From assembly GCA_965224025.1 (NCBI GenBank), contig OZ245033.1, positions 3,552,001-3,616,000 of the forward strand: DNA of 64,000 bases. Reading direction: 5' to 3'. This document shows positions 53,661 to 64,000 of this stretch, one piece after another. Position 1 is the stretch's first letter. The number at the start of each line of letters is the position of its first letter. This DNA comes from Candidatus Multivorans sp. Lineage in GTDB: Bacteria > Acidobacteriota > Thermoanaerobaculia > Multivoradales > Multivoraceae. The translations under genes were made by a program, and so were the position numbers. The notes below the pieces were generated by a model. It searched no databases. It was not told the DNA's origin and saw only the letters and a list, made by a program, of their open reading frames with translations.

Positions 53661-54491
53661 ATGGACGAAAGAGAGTTCGCGTACGATGTGGGCCTGTCGT
53701 TCGCCGGTGAGCAGCGCGGTTACGTCGAGAGCGTCGCTGACGCACTCCGGTCGCGGGGAATCCGGGTCTTCCTTGACAAATACGAACGAGCGGCTCTGTG
53801 GGGTAAGAACCTGTATGAACACCTAAGCGATGTGTATCAGAACCGCTGCCGCTACTGCATCCTGTTTGTGTCGGCCGACTACGCCCGGAAGGTCTGGATG
53901 AATCATGAGCGGAAGAGCGCCCAAGCCCGCGCCATTTCAGAGAAGAGCGAGTACATCCTCCCGGCAAGGTTCGACGACACAGAGGTTGATGGTCTCCTCA
54001 AGACCGTTTCCTACGTAGACCTCAGGGAGACTACTGCTGAGGAGCTCGTCGAGATCACCCTTGCGAAGATCGGGACACCGGAGCGTCGTAACTACTTGCC
54101 CCCTGTGCCCGATAGGCTCTTCGAGCTCCTGGGAATCGAGGAGGACGCCCAGGCACAGGAAGCCGCGCACTCCCAAGCATCGTCTTTCTTGCGGGCCCTA
54201 CGGCGAATGACAGCCGACGAACGTAACGCTGTACTTTGCCTGTTTCGCTTCGGGTGCGACGTAGACTTGCCTGAGAATGTCCATATCAACGCTGATCTTC
54301 TCCGCCGACACACGGGCAGATCGATAGCTACCCTTGAGCGCTTGCTTGGTGACGTCCAATCTCTCGGATTCACCTGTTCCGTCAGAAAGGCCACGGATGG
54401 CGATCACTCCGTCCATGGGACGCTCTTGGGCGAGTCCTACATGTTCGATCTGACTTGGATAGATCTACAAGCTATTCACGACTATCCGGAG
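53661..54491 (+). pseudogene. TIR-domain protein, 5' part (codons 1-277), interrupted by the IS
   Basis: YDVGLSFAGE, VFLD, FVSADY..KVWMNHE, YILPARFDD; frame continues at 57206 once the IS and one TSD are removed. Confidence 0.9.
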
Positions 54492-54509
54492 GGGGATTAT
54501 ATATTAGGC

Positions 54510-54538
54510 TTGACACGGGCGCTGATTTCCCGTAGTGT
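54510..54538 (+). promoter_or_regulatory. Putative sigma70 promoter of the transposase operon
   Basis: TTGACA (inside IRL), 17-nt spacer, TAGTGT. Confidence 0.65.
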
Positions 54539-54566: not shown

Positions 54567-55553
54567 ATGAAGCACAAGGCACCCGGCAAGGCTTACCGCA
54601 AGGGACTGACGTTCGTGCAACTGGCGCGGATGTTCCCCGATGAAGCAGCCGCGCGAGACTGGTTCGAGACGTACCTTTGGCCCGATGGAGTGAAGTGGTG
54701 CCCGAACTGCGGCGGCGACAACACGCACGCATGCAAGCACAAGCAGATGCCGTACCGCTGCCGCGACTGCAAGCGGTACTTCAGCGTCAAGACCGGCACG
54801 CTCATGGCTGGTTCGCCGTTGCCTCTGTTGACGTGGCTCTACGCGATCTACCTCGAACTCACATCGCTCAAGGGCGTATCGAGCATGAAACTGCACCGTG
54901 ACCTAGGCGTCACTCAGAAGACCGCTTGGCACATGCTCCAGCGCATCCGCGAAGCGTTCGCCGCCGAAGGGCCGGAAGTCCGGTTCGACGGTCCCGCCGA
55001 AGTGGACGAGACGTACTTCGGCGGTCTGCGGAAGAACATGCCGAAGTGGAAGCGTGCGGAGCTTGAAGGTCGCGGCACGGTCGGCAAGACCGCCGTGGTG
55101 GGCATCAAGGACCGCGAGACCAAGAAGGTCGCGGCGAAGGTGGTCCGCTCCACCGACGGCGAGACCCTACAGGCGTTCGTGCGCGAGCACGTCGAACCCG
55201 GCGCGATGGTGTACAGCGACGATACCGGGGCGTACAGCGGTCTGACCGAGTACGAGCGTGGCACGGTGAAGCACTCGGTCGGCGAGTACGTGGACGGCAA
55301 GGTCCACACGAACTCGATCGAGAGCTTCTGGTCGATGCTCAAGCGGGCGCACAAGGGTGTGTTCCACAAGATCAGTCCGAAGCACCTGCAACGCTACGTC
55401 GATGAGTTCGCGGGTCGGCAGAACATCCGCGAGTACGACACGCTGGCGCAGATGGTCGCCGTCACGGAGGGACTCGCGGGCAAGCGGCTCCGCTATCGTG
55501 ACCTGATCGCCGACAACGGCCTGCCGTCGGGCGCGCGCGAGGCCGCCGCATGA
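54567..55553 (+). CDS. IS1595-family DDE transposase
   Basis: Zn ribbon CPNC..CRDC; HTH region GVSSMKL..LGVTQKTAW; EVDETY, YSDD, HTNSIESFWS, YVDEF. Confidence 0.96.
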   Translation: MKHKAPGKAYRKGLTFVQLARMFPDEAAARDWFETYLWPDGVKWCPNCGGDNTHACKHKQMPYRCRDCKRYFSVKTGTLMAGSPLPLLTWLYAIYLELTSLKGVSSMKLHRDLGVTQKTAWHMLQRIREAFAAEGPEVRFDGPAEVDETYFGGLRKNMPKWKRAELEGRGTVGKTAVVGIKDRETKKVAAKVVRSTDGETLQAFVREHVEPGAMVYSDDTGAYSGLTEYERGTVKHSVGEYVDGKVHTNSIESFWSMLKRAHKGVFHKISPKHLQRYVDEFAGRQNIREYDTLAQMVAVTEGLAGKRLRYRDLIADNGLPSGAREAAA

Positions 55554-56996
55554 CCATCCTCGGTTCGTTCAGTCTGGTTCCAAACAGCCTCTACTACGGC
55601 GACTGCCTCGAAGTCATGGGCGGTTGGCCAGCCGAGTCGGTGGATCTGATCTACCTCGATCCGCCGTTCAACTCGAAGGCGGACTACAACCAGTTGTTCG
55701 GCACCGAGAACGGCGTGCCGGCCCAAGTTCGGGCGTTCACCGACACATGGACATGGAACGACTCGGCGGCCGAGCGGTACGACCGTTTCAGCCGTGCAGT
55801 CGCGCATCCCGCGCACAAGGCGGTAGTCGGCCTGCACATGGCGCTAGGTCCATCGGGGATGCTCGCGTACCTCACCTACATGGCCGAGCGGCTCGCGGAG
55901 TGCAAGCGCCTGCTCAAGCCGACCGGCTCCATCTACCTGCACTGTGACCACACGGCGGGCGCGTACCTGAAGATGCTCATGGACGCGATCTTCGGAGCGA
56001 ACAATCGCCGAAGCGAACTCCACTGGTACTACTACAACAAGATGCACGACAGCCGGAAGAAGCTGTTTGCTGCCGCCACGGACACAATCTTCTTCTATGT
56101 CAAGGATGTGGACTCCGGTTTTTCGTTTGAACAACTTCAAGAACGCCGCGAAAAGCCCGTCAAGCAGCTTGTACGAGCCAAAGTCAACGGCCGCATGGTC
56201 AACAAGCGAGACGAAGACGGTCGGCTGATGTACCAGACCAAGACACATAGAACCATTGACAATGTGTGGCGGATACCCTGTTTGCAACCAGCATCGAGGG
56301 AGAGATTAGGCTATCCAACACAGAAGCCCCGTGCGCTGTTGGATCGCATCATCAAGGCGTCTTCTAGGGAAGGTGACTTGGTGCTTGACCCGTTCTGCGG
56401 TTGTGGCACGACGATAGACGCGGCGAATCGACTGCAACGGCAGTGGGTCGGCATCGACCTTTCACCGTTCGCCACTCGCCTTGTGCGTGACCGCAGGCTC
56501 AAGGATGCGAGTATCCAGATCTTCGGTATCCCGACAGATGTTGAAGGCGCACGGCTCCTGCTACGCAACAACCCGTTCGACTTCGAGGCGTGGATCGTTA
56601 CGTCGGTGGACGGGCTGGCGGCGAACGAGGTCCAGGTAGGCGACGGCGGCATCGACGGGCGCGGCAGGATGTTCACCGTGCCGGACGATGAAACAGGCTT
56701 GGTGCTCGCTCAGGTGAAGGGGGGGGTACACCGCATCGGCGCTGCGGGACTTCGAGGGCACGATGGGCCGCGAGAACGCCACGGCGGGCATCTTCGTCAC
56801 CTTGAAGCGCGTCACAACGTCCAGTGCCCGCGCGGCTGCCAAGGCGATGGGCGAGTACCGCGTAGGCGCGACGCGCTACCCTCGGCTCCAGTTCTGGTCC
56901 GCAGAGGAGTATCTGAGGGGCGTCCGTCCTCACCTACCCGCGATGGCCGACCCGTACACCGGCAAAGCAGTTCAGACCGACATGTTCACCGGATAG
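55550..56996 (+). pseudogene. Beta-class N6/N4 DNA methyltransferase fused to an Mrr-like nuclease; out of frame at a G8 tract (possibly phase-variable)
   Basis: YLDPPFN (motif IV), YPTQKP, VLDPFCGCGTT (motif I), FE..GDGGIDG..AQVKGG; natural C-terminus (YTASALRDF..GIFVTL..YPRLQ) lies in another frame after G8 at 56719-56726. Confidence 0.88.
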
Positions 56997-57009
56997 CAGG
57001 GAGGAAGCG

Positions 57010-57192
57010 TTGCCCAAGAAGCCGAAGCGCCACACGGAACACAAGAAGGTGTACAAAGCCGAGTACGGCGGCGCTACGCCCGCGCAGGTCACGCTTGCGC
57101 TTCTACGCTACCGTCCAAACGCACCCGAAGCCGTCACGAAGCGTTTGCCACCGCAGGTTCAAGCCGACCCCGCTATCAAGTCTAGTGTATAA
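57010..57192 (+). CDS. Small basic IS-encoded protein (60 aa)
   Basis: GGGAGG RBS before TTG; stop TAA lies inside IRR; ATPAQVTLALLR helix. Confidence 0.55.
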   Translation: MPKKPKRHTEHKKVYKAEYGGATPAQVTLALLRYRPNAPEAVTKRLPPQVQADPAIKSSV

Positions 57193-57205
57193 TCCCCATC
57201 CGGAG

Positions 57206-57340
57206 ATGATGGTCGCTCATGCAATGGTAGTGGCGGCCACCGAGAACTACTGTGAAGAACACGGAGGCGAGTTCCTCGATCGTTTAGACTTCTCCCAGCT
57301 TGCTACCGCAACGGCGACCGCAGAAGATCACGAGGTGTAG
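57206..57340 (+). pseudogene. TIR-domain protein, displaced 3' part (44 codons)
   Basis: In frame with 53661-54491 across the TSD (HDYPE/MMVAHAM...HEV*). Confidence 0.85.
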
Positions 57341-57562: not shown

Positions 57563-59707
57563 CTAGAACAGGGGTTCTTGGGTCGCCACGTCGGTCCCGT
57601 TGGTCCGTTCTCGCGCAGGGAGCCTTGAGGGGCTCGGTGCGGCCGCCAGCGCCTCTAGAGCGGCTTCGACGTCATCGCTGAGAACGTCCATTTCCTCCGA
57701 CGATGTGATCGTCGTGAGGAGTTGGCCAAAGAGCACGATCTTCCGATCGTTGCGCGAGAGGGTGAAACCCGCATCAGCCAGCCGGAGCAGCTTTCGCTCT
57801 GCTACCTTGATCGCCACTTGGCGGCTGAAACTGCTCTCGGAGGCGGCGCCAACCTTACGGCACACCGTCGCTATGTCGAGCTGAATGGGTTCTTTCGCTT
57901 GCGCCTTCGGTGTCGCCACCGACATTTCAGCCTTCAACGGGTGGGCGTTTACGACTTGGAATCCGGCACTCAAGATCGCTTCGGCCAGCGCCGCCCACCC
58001 GGCATTTCGTGAATGGTGATATGTGAACACGAGTAGACCGTCATGCCTGAGCACGCGATGAGCCTCCCGGAACACCCCTGTGAGCTTCTCTGCGAACCGG
58101 TCAGCGTCGACATCCTGGACTTCACCCTTCGCCCGTGTCGATGACACCCCCTCGACAAAGCCACGCGGCGTTAGCTGCTGCCACGCAAAGAAGAAATCAG
58201 CCAACTCAGAGTAGTGAACGTTGTCGAAAAAGGGTGGATCAGTGAGAACTAGGTCGACGCTCTCCGGGGCCAAGTCTGTAAACGCCGAATCGCCGCAGGA
58301 GAGGTACAGGGAGCGCGGCGTGTAAGCTCCGTCATGCCGCCACGGCTTTATTGCGCCAGTGAATGGCCGCGAGCACACCACCGAACGCTTCCCGTTCGTT
58401 GCGCTCTTGAGCTCAGTTGGTGCCTTGTGATACTTAGCCGCACGCAGAAGCCGGCTACGGAAAAGACTCGCGAAAGATCCCGAACTCTTCGGTGTGCCCC
58501 AGAGATTCGCCTCAATGGGAGTGCGCTCCGGCTTCAAGATGTGGTGGGCGAACATGTGTCGAACCGCGCCGGTGCCTTCGCCCTTGTATGAGGCGAACAT
58601 GTTGTTGAACTCTAGTACGCCGGAGAAGAGGGTCAAGAATGCGTCGCGTCCCTTCTCCACAGGCAGGGCGGCGATGGCCTCGTGCAATCACCCTAAGGCG
58701 AGGAGCTGCCTCACGTTGAAGAAGTCGCGCCACTCCCGGAAACCGTAAGCCATCGCCTGCCGCGTGTTGTGGCCAGTCTGCAGCGCAAGTGTCGGAAGCC
58801 TGAAGCTCTCGCGTTCAAGTTCGCGCAGCAAGAGCTGCCGGCAGGCACCAAAGGCATAGTGATCATCCGTCGTCGCTGGCAGATACTCCTTTCGACCATC
58901 CTTGGTCAGTACAAGCTTGCCATACAGACGATAGCGCGGCGGCTTACCGCCTCTCAACGAAGCCGGCCGCACAGCGAAGCTCTCACCACAACTCCGGCGG
59001 GACGCCTTCGAGCCCCGCGCGATCCCTTCCCTCGGGTCAAAACGCAGCGCACATGACGGACACGTAGCCTCCTTGTCCGTGTAGAGCCCGGTGAACCAAG
59101 AGTCGCACCTAGGGCAGAGCACCTGAACTGCAGGCTTGCGCTTCGGATAGGCGTTGCGCGCCCGCATCCACGAGGAGAACAGGTCCACCGAGTTCCTACA
59201 GACTGGGCAGGCGGCTTGCATCACCCAGAAGAAGTAGAGAACCGTCGCCGGCCGGCCGCACAAGTCACGGGTCTCGTAGAGGCGCAGAATCCGTGCACCC
59301 ACATCCCGGCTAAGTGCCCTAAACGTCTCCTCAAGTACGTCGCTCTGCAAGCTCCCCAAAGCCACTCTTACGGCTTCTACCGCCACTGGATTGATGTCGC
59401 GGCCCAGCGCCGCGAGGCCGAGCTTGTGTGCCTCTCCCAACGTGGTACCGGAACCCATGAAGGGGTCGAACACGGTAATACCGGCGTAGTCCTGCGGCTC
59501 GTGGAACGCGTGCGTGAGGTCGTCATCCTCTCCGAGAATGCAGCCTAGCGTGATTCCCCGAAAGACGGATCCGAGACGCTTGGCCCACCACTTGTGGATG
59601 TGGTAGATCGGCCGGTGCACTTCCTTGCGCCAACTCTCGCGCCTCGCCAGCGCCGACAGGAACTCAAACGGGAAATGGTCGGTCTCGATCAGGCGGCGGC
59701 CAAGCAT
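57563..59707 (-). pseudogene. DUF1156-like Zn-ribbon adenine DNA methyltransferase with an in-frame TGA
   Basis: IHKWWAKR, FDPFMGSGTT (motif I), several CxxC, TDPPFFDN (motif IV); two abutting same-frame ORFs separated only by TGA at 58688-58690. Confidence 0.88.
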
Positions 59708-59708
59708 C

Positions 59709-60461
59709 TCAGCGCGCCTCCTCATTCATCGTCACAGTCGAACCTGGCGGGCCTAGGCGCCAAGCGCGGAATCGGTGTTCCCGACCGGCATGCGGGTTCG
59801 TCACTCGATCTACGATGAGGTCGTTCGTGCGCAGGTCGAAGGCGTACGCCGCTACGAGTTCCGCAGCCTCGCTCCGAACCAACTCGCCAACTTCAACGAA
59901 CCGCTCCCCTGGCTCCTGCCCTTCCGGCAGAATCAGTGTGCGATGGTGCGCGAGACCATCCGCAAGTCGAAACGGCGTCGGGACCACATACATCTTCCGA
60001 TCGCGGATCATTAGGTCGCCGTAGGTCCCAAAGCCCCTCACGCTCTTATTCTTGTGTATGTAGTCATGGTCGGCGTTCAAGAAGTCGCCGTGAACGAAGA
60101 CCAAGTCCAGCACCGGATAGACGCTGCCGTCCGGATGCTTGGGATAGCGGCCGAACACGTAGTAGATTGCTCGACCGTTGTGGAATCCTGTCGGAACCTG
60201 GCTTTTGCTGTCGAAAGTAGCGTGTCGGCCCGGATACGCCAGCCCCTTCAGCTCGTAGCCCTCCGTGAATCGCACCAGCCGAAAGTCGGGATAGCTGTTC
60301 CGGCCGCCCTGTTCAAAGTTGAGCCCCGTTTCGCGAAGGCGCTCCTTGAACCAGTTCTGGAAGTGGAATTCCTTGTCGCTCAGACTCTCGCGCACGATCA
60401 GAGACCCACCTTCGATCGCCTTGACGCATTGCCGGAAGATGTTTGGGGCTTGCAGCGCCAT
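59709..60461 (-). CDS. Putative PD-(D/E)XK type II-like restriction endonuclease
   Basis: SYPDFRL...GYELK motif; directly upstream of the methylase gene on the same strand. Confidence 0.7.
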   Translation of the reverse strand: MALQAPNIFRQCVKAIEGGSLIVRESLSDKEFHFQNWFKERLRETGLNFEQGGRNSYPDFRLVRFTEGYELKGLAYPGRHATFDSKSQVPTGFHNGRAIYYVFGRYPKHPDGSVYPVLDLVFVHGDFLNADHDYIHKNKSVRGFGTYGDLMIRDRKMYVVPTPFRLADGLAHHRTLILPEGQEPGERFVEVGELVRSEAAELVAAYAFDLRTNDLIVDRVTNPHAGREHRFRAWRLGPPGSTVTMNEEAR

Positions 60462-60581
60462 CACCGCCTCTCAACCGGATTCGACTGTACCAAGGTCTGC
60501 GGGGGCCAGACGAGACGAGCCGACGGTTCTCCTAACTGTCCATGTCCATCATGAGGCTCCGTGCCCTATTGTGTGCCTCGT

Positions 60582-61861: not shown

Positions 61862-64000
61862 CTAGCTGTCGTTGGCGAGTTTGCGAAAGTACTCGTCGAC
61901 GAGTTCGCGGTAGCCGGCGGGAACTTGGTCGGAGTTGCCGAGGTAGACGCGTTCGGTGTCGGCGCCGCGCAGATCGCGCCACAGGCGGTACTCGAACTGC
62001 CGGAGCCCTTCGACGATGTCGCGGCGGAGGGACTCGAGGGCGAGGGGATCCCGGTTGAGCCCGAGCAGGTTCAGATCGCCCATCCGGCGCAGCACCTGAT
62101 CCAGGTCGGAGGTGTCCATCCGCTCGCGCCGGAGTTCGCCTCTCAAGGCCTCGAGGTCCTGCTGCCGCTGCTGCAACTCGCGATCGAACTGGCGCAGGTC
62201 CTCGGCGGTGAAGATGCCGGGCTGATAGTAGCCGCCGGAACTCGATCCGTACTGGTTGGCACGACCCCAGTCCCTGGCGCCGCCTTGCTGGTTGCGAGCG
62301 CCACCGCGCTCTGAAGCCTCGCCCGGTTGGCCACCCTCCTGGTTGCCGCCCCGCTGGTCGCCACCCTGTTGCTCGCCGCCCTGCTGCTGGCCACCTTGTT
62401 GGTCGCCACCCTGCTGCTCGCCGCCCTCCTGCCGGCCCTCCTGTTCGCCCCGCTGGCCGGGACGCTGGCCGAGCCTGGCGCCGGCCTCGGCCCGGTCGCG
62501 CAGACGGGCCTCGAATGAAGACAGGTTCTCGACCAGGTCGCGAGTCCGCTCAAGCATGTCATCCTGGCGCTGGCCTCCCCCTTCGCCGACGCTCTCCCGC
62601 GCTTCGGCGATCCGCTCCGCCACTTCGTCGATGTCTTGGCGGATCTGACCCTCGAACAGGCGCGCGAACTCCGCGTCACGGCCGGCCAGCACACCCTTCG
62701 AGTAGCGGATCTTTTCCTTCAACTGCTCGTCCCGGATCACCTCGGCCGAGGCCTGCAGCTTGCGCGCCGCCTCCGGCTGCTCGTCGCGGGCGCTTCTCGT
62801 CATCCGGTTGAGCTGGGCTTCCAGGCCGCCCACCTCATCGGTCAGGCGATCCTTGCGCTCCATGATCCGCTCGATGAACTCCGAACGTTCCCGCGCCGTG
62901 AGATCGCTCCGGCGCCGGCCGCCTTCGCCCTCCTGACCCGCCAGCTCTTCAACCTGCTCCTCGATCCGGCTCTGCATCTGCGATACGCGCTCGGCGCGCT
63001 GCTGCAGTTCCTCCATTTCCCGGCCGAGTTGCCGGCGGCGGTTGCGGTCCAGCAGCCGGCGCGCGTCGCGCAGCTTGTCCAGGGCCGCGATCCCCTGCGC
63101 CCCGGCACTCGACCGGGAACCGGAGGCGCCGGCCTGTGAGCGCTTCATCTGCTCGACCGCCTCCCGCAACGCCTGGGTCGTCTGCTGGAGTTCCGCACGC
63201 TGCTGCTCGCGCGCCAACCGTTCCAGCCGCCTCGCCAACTCCTCGGTTTCGTCGATCAGTTGCTGCTGACTGCCGCCGCCGCCGCCGCCCTGCTGCTGGC
63301 GACCCCGCAACCGGTTCTGGCGCTCGTTCTCACGCTGCTGGCGGCGGGCCAGCTCGCGCAACTTCTGCATCAGTTCGTCGATCTCGGCCTGCGCCTGCTC
63401 GGCGGCGCCCCGCTGCACCGTCTCGTACTGGTTGCGCAGCTTGTCGAGTTCCAGCTCGAACAGATCCGCGAGGTCCTCCGATAGCTGCTGGTTGCCGCCG
63501 CCACCGCCGCCGCCCTGCTGGAACGAGATCGTCAGTTCGCGGAATGCGGATTCCGCCCGCTGCAGCGACGCCAGGGCCTGCTTCTCCACCGTCATCGCCT
63601 CATCAGGCCGCTCCGCCTCGAGTTCCCGCTGGGCGGCCGCCATCTCCGTGCCGGCCTGCTGAAGGAATTCGATGATCTGGGAGAACTCCTCGTCCTCGAG
63701 CAACTGCTGGCCGCGGTTCCCCATCCGCGTGATCAGCGAGCCGACCTGGTCCCGCAGGCGTCCCTGCATCAGGGCGATCGTGGTCAGGTTCTCGGACATC
63801 TCCTTGCCGGAGTACTCCTCCGCGTCCCTGACCAGCCGGAAGGTGGCCGAGATGATCATCTTCTGCTGCACCGACAGCGTGTTGTCGAAACCGCCGTCGC
63901 CACCCATGCCGCCGCCGCCCTGCTCGGCCTGCCTGTAGTTCCGATCGAAGGGCCTGATCTCCAGGAAGTAGATGTCGCTGATCACGGGCTTCGAGCGCCC
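61862..64000 (-). CDS. Large Gln/Gly-rich coiled-coil protein (DUF4175-like), C-terminal part; gene runs off the window
   Basis: SDIYFLEIRPF, LADLFELE, long heptads, terminal VPAGYRELVDEYFRKL. Confidence 0.8.
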   Translation of the reverse strand, partial: GRSKPVISDIYFLEIRPFDRNYRQAEQGGGGMGGDGGFDNTLSVQQKMIISATFRLVRDAEEYSGKEMSENLTTIALMQGRLRDQVGSLITRMGNRGQQLLEDEEFSQIIEFLQQAGTEMAAAQRELEAERPDEAMTVEKQALASLQRAESAFRELTISFQQGGGGGGGNQQLSEDLADLFELELDKLRNQYETVQRGAAEQAQAEIDELMQKLRELARRQQRENERQNRLRGRQQQGGGGGGSQQQLIDETEELARRLERLAREQQRAELQQTTQALREAVEQMKRSQAGASGSRSSAGAQGIAALDKLRDARRLLDRNRRRQLGREMEELQQRAERVSQMQSRIEEQVEELAGQEGEGGRRRSDLTARERSEFIERIMERKDRLTDEVGGLEAQLNRMTRSARDEQPEAARKLQASAEVIRDEQLKEKIRYSKGVLAGRDAEFARLFEGQIRQDIDEVAERIAEARESVGEGGGQRQDDMLERTRDLVENLSSFEARLRDRAEAGARLGQRPGQRGEQEGRQEGGEQQGGDQQGGQQQGGEQQGGDQRGGNQEGGQPGEASERGGARNQQGGARDWGRANQYGSSSGGYYQPGIFTAEDLRQFDRELQQRQQDLEALRGELRRERMDTSDLDQVLRRMGDLNLLGLNRDPLALESLRRDIVEGLRQFEYRLWRDLRGADTERVYLGNSDQVPAGYRELVDEYFRKLANDS

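Follow-up and report, generated by a model that had tools for sequence, protein, structure and literature searches.

A G8 tract takes the predicted nuclease out of frame in a methyltransferase-nuclease gene carried by an IS1595-family element of Candidatus Multivorans

The window (the whole stretch of 64,000 nucleotides of DNA analysed here) contains an insertion sequence of the IS1595 family whose passenger gene encodes a predicted DNA methyltransferase followed by a predicted Mrr-type nuclease, and a run of eight guanines lying directly behind the catalytic codons of the nuclease takes the rest of it out of frame. On balance, and with no great assurance, we favour the view that this is a real poly-G tract, fixed here at an off length, that the nuclease half is disabled and that the gene is being lost in most of its copies. 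To judge from sequence comparisons, this cargo family carries such tracts repeatedly, and the longer ones would be truly variable.

An IS1595-family element with a passenger gene

The element is 2,706 bp long. It is bounded by imperfect inverted repeats of 22 bp, is flanked by a target duplication of 8 bp and contains a passenger gene; the identity shared by its four copies in this genome starts at 54492. Its transposase contains both the IS1595 DDE domain (PF12762) and an N-terminal zinc ribbon (PF12760) and scores 187.5 bits with the transposase model NF033547, for which the cutoff is 75. The transposase stop codon overlaps the start codon of the cargo gene (ATGA, 55550-55553). The features of the locus are as follows, in window positions:

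54484-54491, no strand: left copy of the target-site duplication, ATCCGGAG, with an identical octamer at 57198-57205
54492-54513, plus strand: left terminal inverted repeat (GGGGATTATATATTAGGCTTGA), complementary to the right end at 18 of its 22 bases
54567-55553, plus strand: IS1595-family transposase, 328 aa (PF12762, E 1e-39; PF12760, E 3e-7; NF033547, E 2.7e-55)
55550-56726, plus strand: cargo gene in frame 0, predicted beta-class N6/N4 DNA methyltransferase and first half of an Mrr-type nuclease (GDGGIDGRG ... LAQVK GG), assigned from PF01555, solved relatives and a structural model
56719-56726, plus strand: G8 homopolymer within the Lys-Gly-Gly(-Gly) codons, for which the in-frame lengths are G7, G10 and G13
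56727-56996, plus strand: remainder of the nuclease domain with the C-terminal tail, in the +1 frame (89 codons and a stop)
56727-57340, plus strand: frame-0 tail of the uncorrected ORF, crossing the right end of the element into flanking DNA
57010-57192, plus strand: small conserved ORF of 60 aa, with a TTG start and GGGAGG upstream, without a Pfam family
57176-57197, minus strand: right terminal inverted repeat, pairing with the left one
57198-57205, no strand: right copy of the target-site duplication, ATCCGGAG, matching the left octamer

The preliminary description had spoken of a jumping gene, and this is what we find: the gene is the cargo of an IS1595 element with inverted repeats, a target duplication and four copies. 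The 60-aa ORF is situated behind the cargo gene and before the right inverted repeat, and has a good ribosome-binding site. Its counterpart in L035, another element of this family, is 68% identical to it over 53 aa, and the copies of the related family F2 described below match it weakly.

In the window, the element interrupts a TIR-domain gene (53661-54491 and 57206-57340; PF13676, E 2e-18, with weak matches to ThsB and retron-TIR proteins), whose frame resumes for 45 codons past the right target duplication. It is followed on the minus strand by a DUF1156/PglX-like methyltransferase gene (57563-59725), which occupies a single frame and is listed as two ORFs because of an in-frame stop at 58688-58690 (...QLLALG, the stop, then LHEAIA...). 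A 251-aa ORF without a family match (59709-60464) overlaps this gene upstream and may encode its nuclease partner. Further along, a tandem 15-nt periodicity with seven copies (62313-62467) lies inside a long minus-strand ORF (61862-63985).

A methyltransferase fused to an interrupted nuclease

A Pfam profile search matches residues 31-310 of the cargo protein to PF01555 (N6_N4_Mtase, E 1.1e-49), so that the methyltransferase motifs all lie upstream of the tract, as had been claimed from the sequence. They come in the order DPPF (37-40), then FCGCGTT (282-288, with FCGCG at 282-286 as the FxGxG motif), and the nearest solved relatives of this domain are CcrM, M.RsrI and M.MboIIA, by sequence as well as by fold. 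Behind it, and only in the read-through form, residues 341-432 match PF04471 (Mrr_cat) with 26.0 bits against a cutoff of 21, in a domain that spans the tract; as encoded, with G8, the Mrr_cat domain is cut at residue 392. The catalytic-type signature D...QxK takes the form GDGGIDG ... QVK. Among 48 homologues D365, D369 and K390 are invariant and Q388 is present in at least 90%, which agrees with the QxK nuclease motif first described, and the succession of PF01555 and PF04471 agrees with the domain order given with it. Eight further residues invariant in these homologues (R399, F401, A410, G413, W449, P463, P468 and G471) are all encoded 3' of the tract and are lost with G8. In an AlphaFold model (48 homologues, pLDDT 85.9), the LAQVK strand (384-389) is followed by a helix (395-407) and another strand (412-417); the tract falls between the first strand and the helix, and the nuclease core is therefore predicted to be interrupted mid-way. 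Foldseek with the whole model gave methyltransferase structures only among the matches listed.

As in Mrr and other PD-(D/E)xK proteins of the Mrr_cat type (PF04471), there is a D...QxK signature and a Pfam match above the cutoff; unlike in Mrr, the predicted nuclease domain sits behind a methyltransferase and ends after the QxK strand. Type IIG restriction-modification (R-M) enzymes of the MmeI-like kind hold an N-terminal nuclease, a gamma-class methyltransferase and a target-recognition domain in one chain. The layout here differs from theirs, since a beta-class methyltransferase comes first and the Mrr-type nuclease is C-terminal. The protein may work like a one-chain R-M enzyme. If the model is right, a ribosome reading G8 would leave the nuclease frame after strand 3 of the PD-(D/E)xK core, and an unrelated tail would take the place of the helix, of strand 4 and of the conserved C-terminal portion, leaving the nuclease dead. 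The methyltransferase half could still be made, and its methylase activity is probably kept in the window copy.

Reading frames across the tract

The G8 run is located at 56719-56726, directly 3' of the QVK codons (...CTC GCT CAG GTG AAG GGG GGG GTA CAC...), and is thus a homopolymer inside an ORF, as in a contingency locus. Frame 0 is open from 55550 to 57340 (596 aa) and continues past the tract into an Arg-rich tail (KGGVHRIGAAGLRGHDG...). Skipping one base in the tract, which is equivalent to G7, yields a protein of 481 aa ending in ...DMFTG with its stop at 56994-56996, and G10 yields one of 482 aa; the +1 frame downstream of the tract reads YTASALRDFEGTMGRENATAGIFVTL...DMFTG and ends at 56996. 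Sequence and frame translations therefore agree with the original observation that G8 right after the nuclease QxK throws the C-terminus out of frame, and also with the 481-482 aa, ending at 56996, predicted for G7 or G10. An ORF scan finds no stop in frame 0 inside the element, so that the tail of each copy is set by its insertion site, and tail length does vary by copy (total lengths of 596, 619 and 547 aa). Such an insertion-site-dependent tail is unlike an evolved two-product design. For annotation, this means that the 596-aa ORF is best treated as a frameshift artefact and the locus as an IS1595 passenger gene with its nuclease half disabled.

G8 could itself be functional if some transcripts or ribosomes shifted +1 on it and so produced the full-length enzyme at a low, safe level. 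Recoding is common in insertion sequences, G8 is invariant in all copies, and the 89-codon frame behind it is open and 88% identical to that of the intact orthologue. Yet in orthologues and paralogues this protein is encoded in one frame throughout, frame 0 is free of stops as far as the end of the element, an allele from another assembly (P0001) has a 1-base deletion inside the supposed shifted frame, and G runs are not usual slippery sites for RNA polymerase. We consider programmed recoding to be very improbable.

The G8 length is real and constant in the available alleles

All six alleles have G8, namely the four genomic copies and two alleles from other assemblies (P0131 and P0001). The same length, with no other letter and no gap, is present in the contigs that span the tract in four public runs from three studies (X1 record 3 at depth 173, X2 record 15 at depth 121, X3 record 24 at depth 4.1 and X5 record 31 at depth 3.1), of which those from X1 and X2 possibly derive from the same sample as the genome assembly. 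This last point, together with the proneness of long-read assemblies to errors in long homopolymers, is what can be said for a sequencing or assembly error hiding a true length that is in frame. Against it, the four copies are separately resolved by copy-specific SNPs and are all G8, the K-mer contigs agree at depths of 173 and 121 as well as in two other studies, the two alleles from other assemblies are in the same frame, and the assembly has G or C runs up to G11, so that its homopolymers are not compressed across the board. An error of this kind, which had been named at the outset as one of two findings that would refute the proposal, is thus not borne out, and we give it hardly any credence.

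The count of allele lengths suggested for raw reads was made on contigs, where only G8 appeared; minor alleles in raw reads are beyond the reach of contigs, which also miss the real 2:2 SNP at 56313, so that the presence of G8 is proven and minor lengths may be hidden. Across the six alleles and the contigs from three studies no variation in tract length between copies, assemblies or runs was seen. Nor did an in-frame state turn up beside the out-of-frame one among the protein matches or in the 16-member cluster of close alleles: the best 120 of 8,000 scored proteins include no in-frame allele near 100% identity, and the closest intact protein among these listed matches (P0002, labelled at source as from a Holophagales MAG) is 69% identical. 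Within the cluster, P0133, P0132, P0131 and P0001 all read KGGVHRIG, out of frame, and P0134 is a 160-aa fragment of copy D; P0001 and P0131 each have one further indel downstream of the tract. Metagenome pattern scans for any tract length between the flanks of this element, or between those of its relative in genome G029, gave no matches, not even for G8, and are therefore uninformative as to length.

The results on alleles and contigs weigh on the idea of a working contingency locus, in which reversible slippage between G7, G8, G9 and G10 would toggle the nuclease under constant methylation, so that restriction would be exerted in a subpopulation only. We consider this possible, if on the unlikely side. 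The frame downstream of the tract is open and conserved, as a switch would require, but the length is the same in the six alleles and in the contigs of the three studies, and no in-frame allele exists among the best 120 of 8,000 proteins or in the 16-member cluster; G8 is, moreover, one step away from G7 and two from the ancestral-looking KGGG (G10). In the earlier proposal that slippage could toggle restriction and leave methylation intact, the position of the frameshift behind the methylase has stood up; a change in length is not seen, with six of six alleles at G8 and none in frame.

Copies of the element and decay of the cargo

The four copies in this genome (family F1, copy A being that of the window) measure 2,706-2,707 bp. 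A and B each have a perfect 8-bp duplication at their ends, and the flanks of C and D are exchanged. Copies C (C1:909278-911983) and D (C1:2130591-2133297) are without matching target duplications and the left flank of C is the right flank of D (ATTTGAAT), which points to a mis-join or to a recombination event between two copies in inverted orientation, 1.2 Mb from each other.

G8 is shared by all four, which otherwise differ only at about 56030, where copy D has an extra A, and at two SNPs (56313 and 57071). The additional A of copy D shifts the frame of the methylase at about codon 161, and Y255, which belongs to the GYPTQKP motif and is invariant in the 48 homologues, is replaced by Cys in copies B and C, as well as in P0001. 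The methylase half is thus damaged in three of the four copies, and only that of the window is undamaged: it has no further lesion, and its 89 codons downstream of the tract are still open. Both the damage to three methylases and the fact that substitutions and an indel have accrued elsewhere in the same copies, with the tract unchanged, speak against a contingency locus at work. Under our preferred reading of a tract fixed at an off length, that length would be older than at least three transpositions and unchanged since, while the passenger gathers further lesions. We reject a TnsA-like role of the nuclease in transposition, as the element has moved at least three times with the nuclease already broken.

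Three related families (F2, F3 and F4) accompany F1 in the same genome. F2 comprises four identical copies (C1:266966, 474868, 1309513 and 1996518) encoding an intact methylase-Mrr fusion of 528 aa, F3 three copies (C1:241766, 1568891 and 1971221) and F4 one (889454). The nuclease module fused to the methylase is of the Mrr type in F1 and F2 and an HNH module in F3 and F4. Counted over the four families, no fewer than twelve IS1595 elements of this genome carry methylase-nuclease passengers; in F4 the methylase seems to be shifted out of frame close to the N-terminal end. Since F2 has reached four copies with an intact nuclease and no tract, a toggle is unnecessary for spread in this genome.

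The same glycine codons in orthologues and paralogues

The closest orthologue (G019), which is linked to a transposase and intact, encodes KGGGY with mixed codons (AAG GGC GGT GGA TAC), and the intact F2 paralogue encodes KGGGF with the same ones (AAG GGC GGT GGA). Both lack the tract, which counts against a contingency locus. Poly-G would be a replacement of these usual mixed Gly codons after the catalytic QxK, probably by way of an in-frame ancestor with G10 (KGGG) or G7. When the 89 codons downstream of the tract are compared with those of the G019 orthologue, 41 are identical, 37 synonymous and 11 non-synonymous (amino-acid identity 88%, as mentioned above); on this synonymous excess, the break is young on the scale of the history of the gene.

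Among the 42 genomes of the genus, three contain the Mrr-type cargo, which falls into five lineages. Three of these lineages use mixed codons and are intact; the remaining two have pure poly-G and have lost the frame. The second of these, in genome G029 (L011; 84% DNA identity to F2), has G11 at the identical KGGG codons, is out of frame and has no other lesion. Genomic Gly codons are GGC (0.64), GGG (0.15), GGT (0.11) and GGA (0.10), from which the probability of three GGG in a row is about 0.0035. This improbability of a pure GGG triple (~0.35%) favours a contingency locus, and so does the fact that two lineages of the genus have poly-G in these very KGGG codons (G8 here, G11 in G029); two independent conversions of three Gly codons to GGG, at ~0.0035 each, seem unlikely on these codon frequencies. 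A neutral reading of the poly-G in both broken lineages nevertheless exists: a chance G run is a hot spot for frameshifts, so that runs will be over-represented among broken alleles, and runs tend to grow by misalignment mutagenesis. That two IS1595 lineages of one genus have each evolved a working restriction-only switch, by convergence on the same Lys-Gly-Gly-Gly codons, is, in our judgement, unlikely, though worth keeping in view.

Outside the genus, the longest G run at this site is 5 in 71 homologue matches from other phyla that span it in one frame, and mixed codons are used throughout for [QS]-V-K-[GSA]-G. When 401 genomes of the phylum were scanned, the pattern A-Q-[IV]-K with G7 or longer behind it was matched at two sites outside the present genome (L124 and L125), neither of them homologous, and the reversed control pattern likewise gave two sites. 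The question whether homologues favour pure GGG at KGG receives a divided answer: G11 in G029 says that they can, and G019, F2 and the 71 matches from other phyla use other codons. The same is true of simple pseudogenisation, which had been equated with a tract invariant in the population and absent from homologues: it is invariant in the six alleles and the contigs, and it is absent from the G019 orthologue and from F2, yet G029 has G11.

At the scale of the genome (5.14 Mb), base composition predicts about 1,158 runs of at least eight G or C; 25 are observed, four of them in the copies of this element, and the tract seems on these counts to exceed chance expectation. The ORF context of the other 21 long runs is too noisy to be used, as a GC content of 67% opens long frames in many frames. 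Two of the long runs, G10 at C1:5008986 and C10 at C1:5046502, have mutually reverse-complementary contexts ~37 kb apart and are part of an inverted repeat.

Variable tracts at another site in transposase-linked relatives

Among homologous loci of other phyla, six of the eight with an IS1595 transposase directly upstream contain a G9-G11 run inside the gene, compared with no G or C run of at least 8 in any of the 72 loci without one. Five of the six tracts are at the methylase motif LMDAIF..FRNEIVW, and the sixth (L056) is nearby. The loci with G9-G15 tracts (L142/L143, L164/L165, L151-L156, L046-L050 and L056) come from MAGs of Rhodothermales, Paracoccaceae, Gemmatimonadaceae and Halioglobus; in all of them except L056 the tract is at the methylase motif (DAIF..FRNE). 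Their tract lengths have to be read with the proviso that long homopolymers can be miscalled in MAGs. In G450, two copies (L164/L165) with 0 mismatches in 2,662 nt have G10 and G12, and in G448 two copies (L142/L143) with 3 mismatches in 2,774 nt have G11 and G15. Six copies in G449 (L151-L156), four of which are identical to each other, all have G9 and are all out of frame. Two alleles with such tracts are in frame (L050 with G11 and L143 with G15) and eight are out of frame. Slippage in general makes longer tracts more mutable; here, as far as the sequences go, tracts of 8-9 look stable and longer ones mutable.

This recurrence of length-variable poly-G, at another site and in both frame states, favours a contingency locus, and it makes selection for a mutable tract in the cargo family plausible. 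Retention in related genes is uneven, since the tract is absent from G019 and F2, is present as G11 in G029 and occurs at another site in six of the eight transposase-linked relatives. The further suggestion that a toggle could let the gene establish safely in an unmethylated host meets with the same mixture: F2 has spread to four copies, intact and without a tract, which tells against a need for a toggle within this genome, and the G11 of G029 and the variable tracts of the relatives are in favour of the suggestion.

Comparison with known systems and significance

Homopolymer switches of R-M genes have been described in a few host-adapted pathogens whose genomes are low in GC, with phase-variable examples in Campylobacter and Neisseria in addition to Helicobacter. 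According to one report (PMC3936762), homopolymer on/off switching of R-M genes is established in Helicobacter, including the single-chain Type IIG genes JHP1272 and HP1353-HP1354, and tracts of >8 bp are likely variable, which lends some support to a contingency locus here. As in these Helicobacter pylori genes, a G/C homopolymer lies in a single-chain R-M gene and a frameshift picks the part that is made; in H. pylori, however, lengths vary by strain and both states are documented, and here only G8 is found. The gene of the window also differs from those of Helicobacter in that it rides in an insertion sequence and that it belongs to an acidobacterial symbiont of high GC content.

Transporter insertion sequences (tIS) of the IS1595 family, carrying passenger genes, were reportedly described by Siguier, Gagnevin and Chandler in 2009. 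Our element has in common with them a DDE transposase with a zinc ribbon, short inverted repeats, an 8-bp duplication and a passenger between the repeats, but its passenger is, unlike theirs, a methyltransferase-nuclease fusion, translationally coupled to the transposase (ATGA) and containing poly-G. Furuta et al. (PMC2853133) cite Siguier et al. 2009 for R-M systems and apparently solitary methylase genes flanked by insertion sequences. In the literature covered, with subscription journals outside its scope, we found no description of an IS1595 passenger consisting of a methylase-nuclease fusion, with poly-G tracts.

What the window holds is the same device, or its wreck, in a one-protein methylase-nuclease on an insertion sequence of a high-GC symbiont, and in several phyla the tracts of related elements differ in length from one to another of otherwise identical copies. 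If a convergent switch were at work in the two lineages of the genus, constant methylation of the host combined with a nuclease armed in rare cells would amount to a mobile, self-protecting and stochastically armed restriction system, and this would be part of a wider poly-G habit among jumping methylase-nuclease genes. If the tracts are indeed switches, these elements would be mobile R-M genes that keep their toxicity in check, a point of relevance to the spread of selfish R-M systems and to their settling in new genomes.
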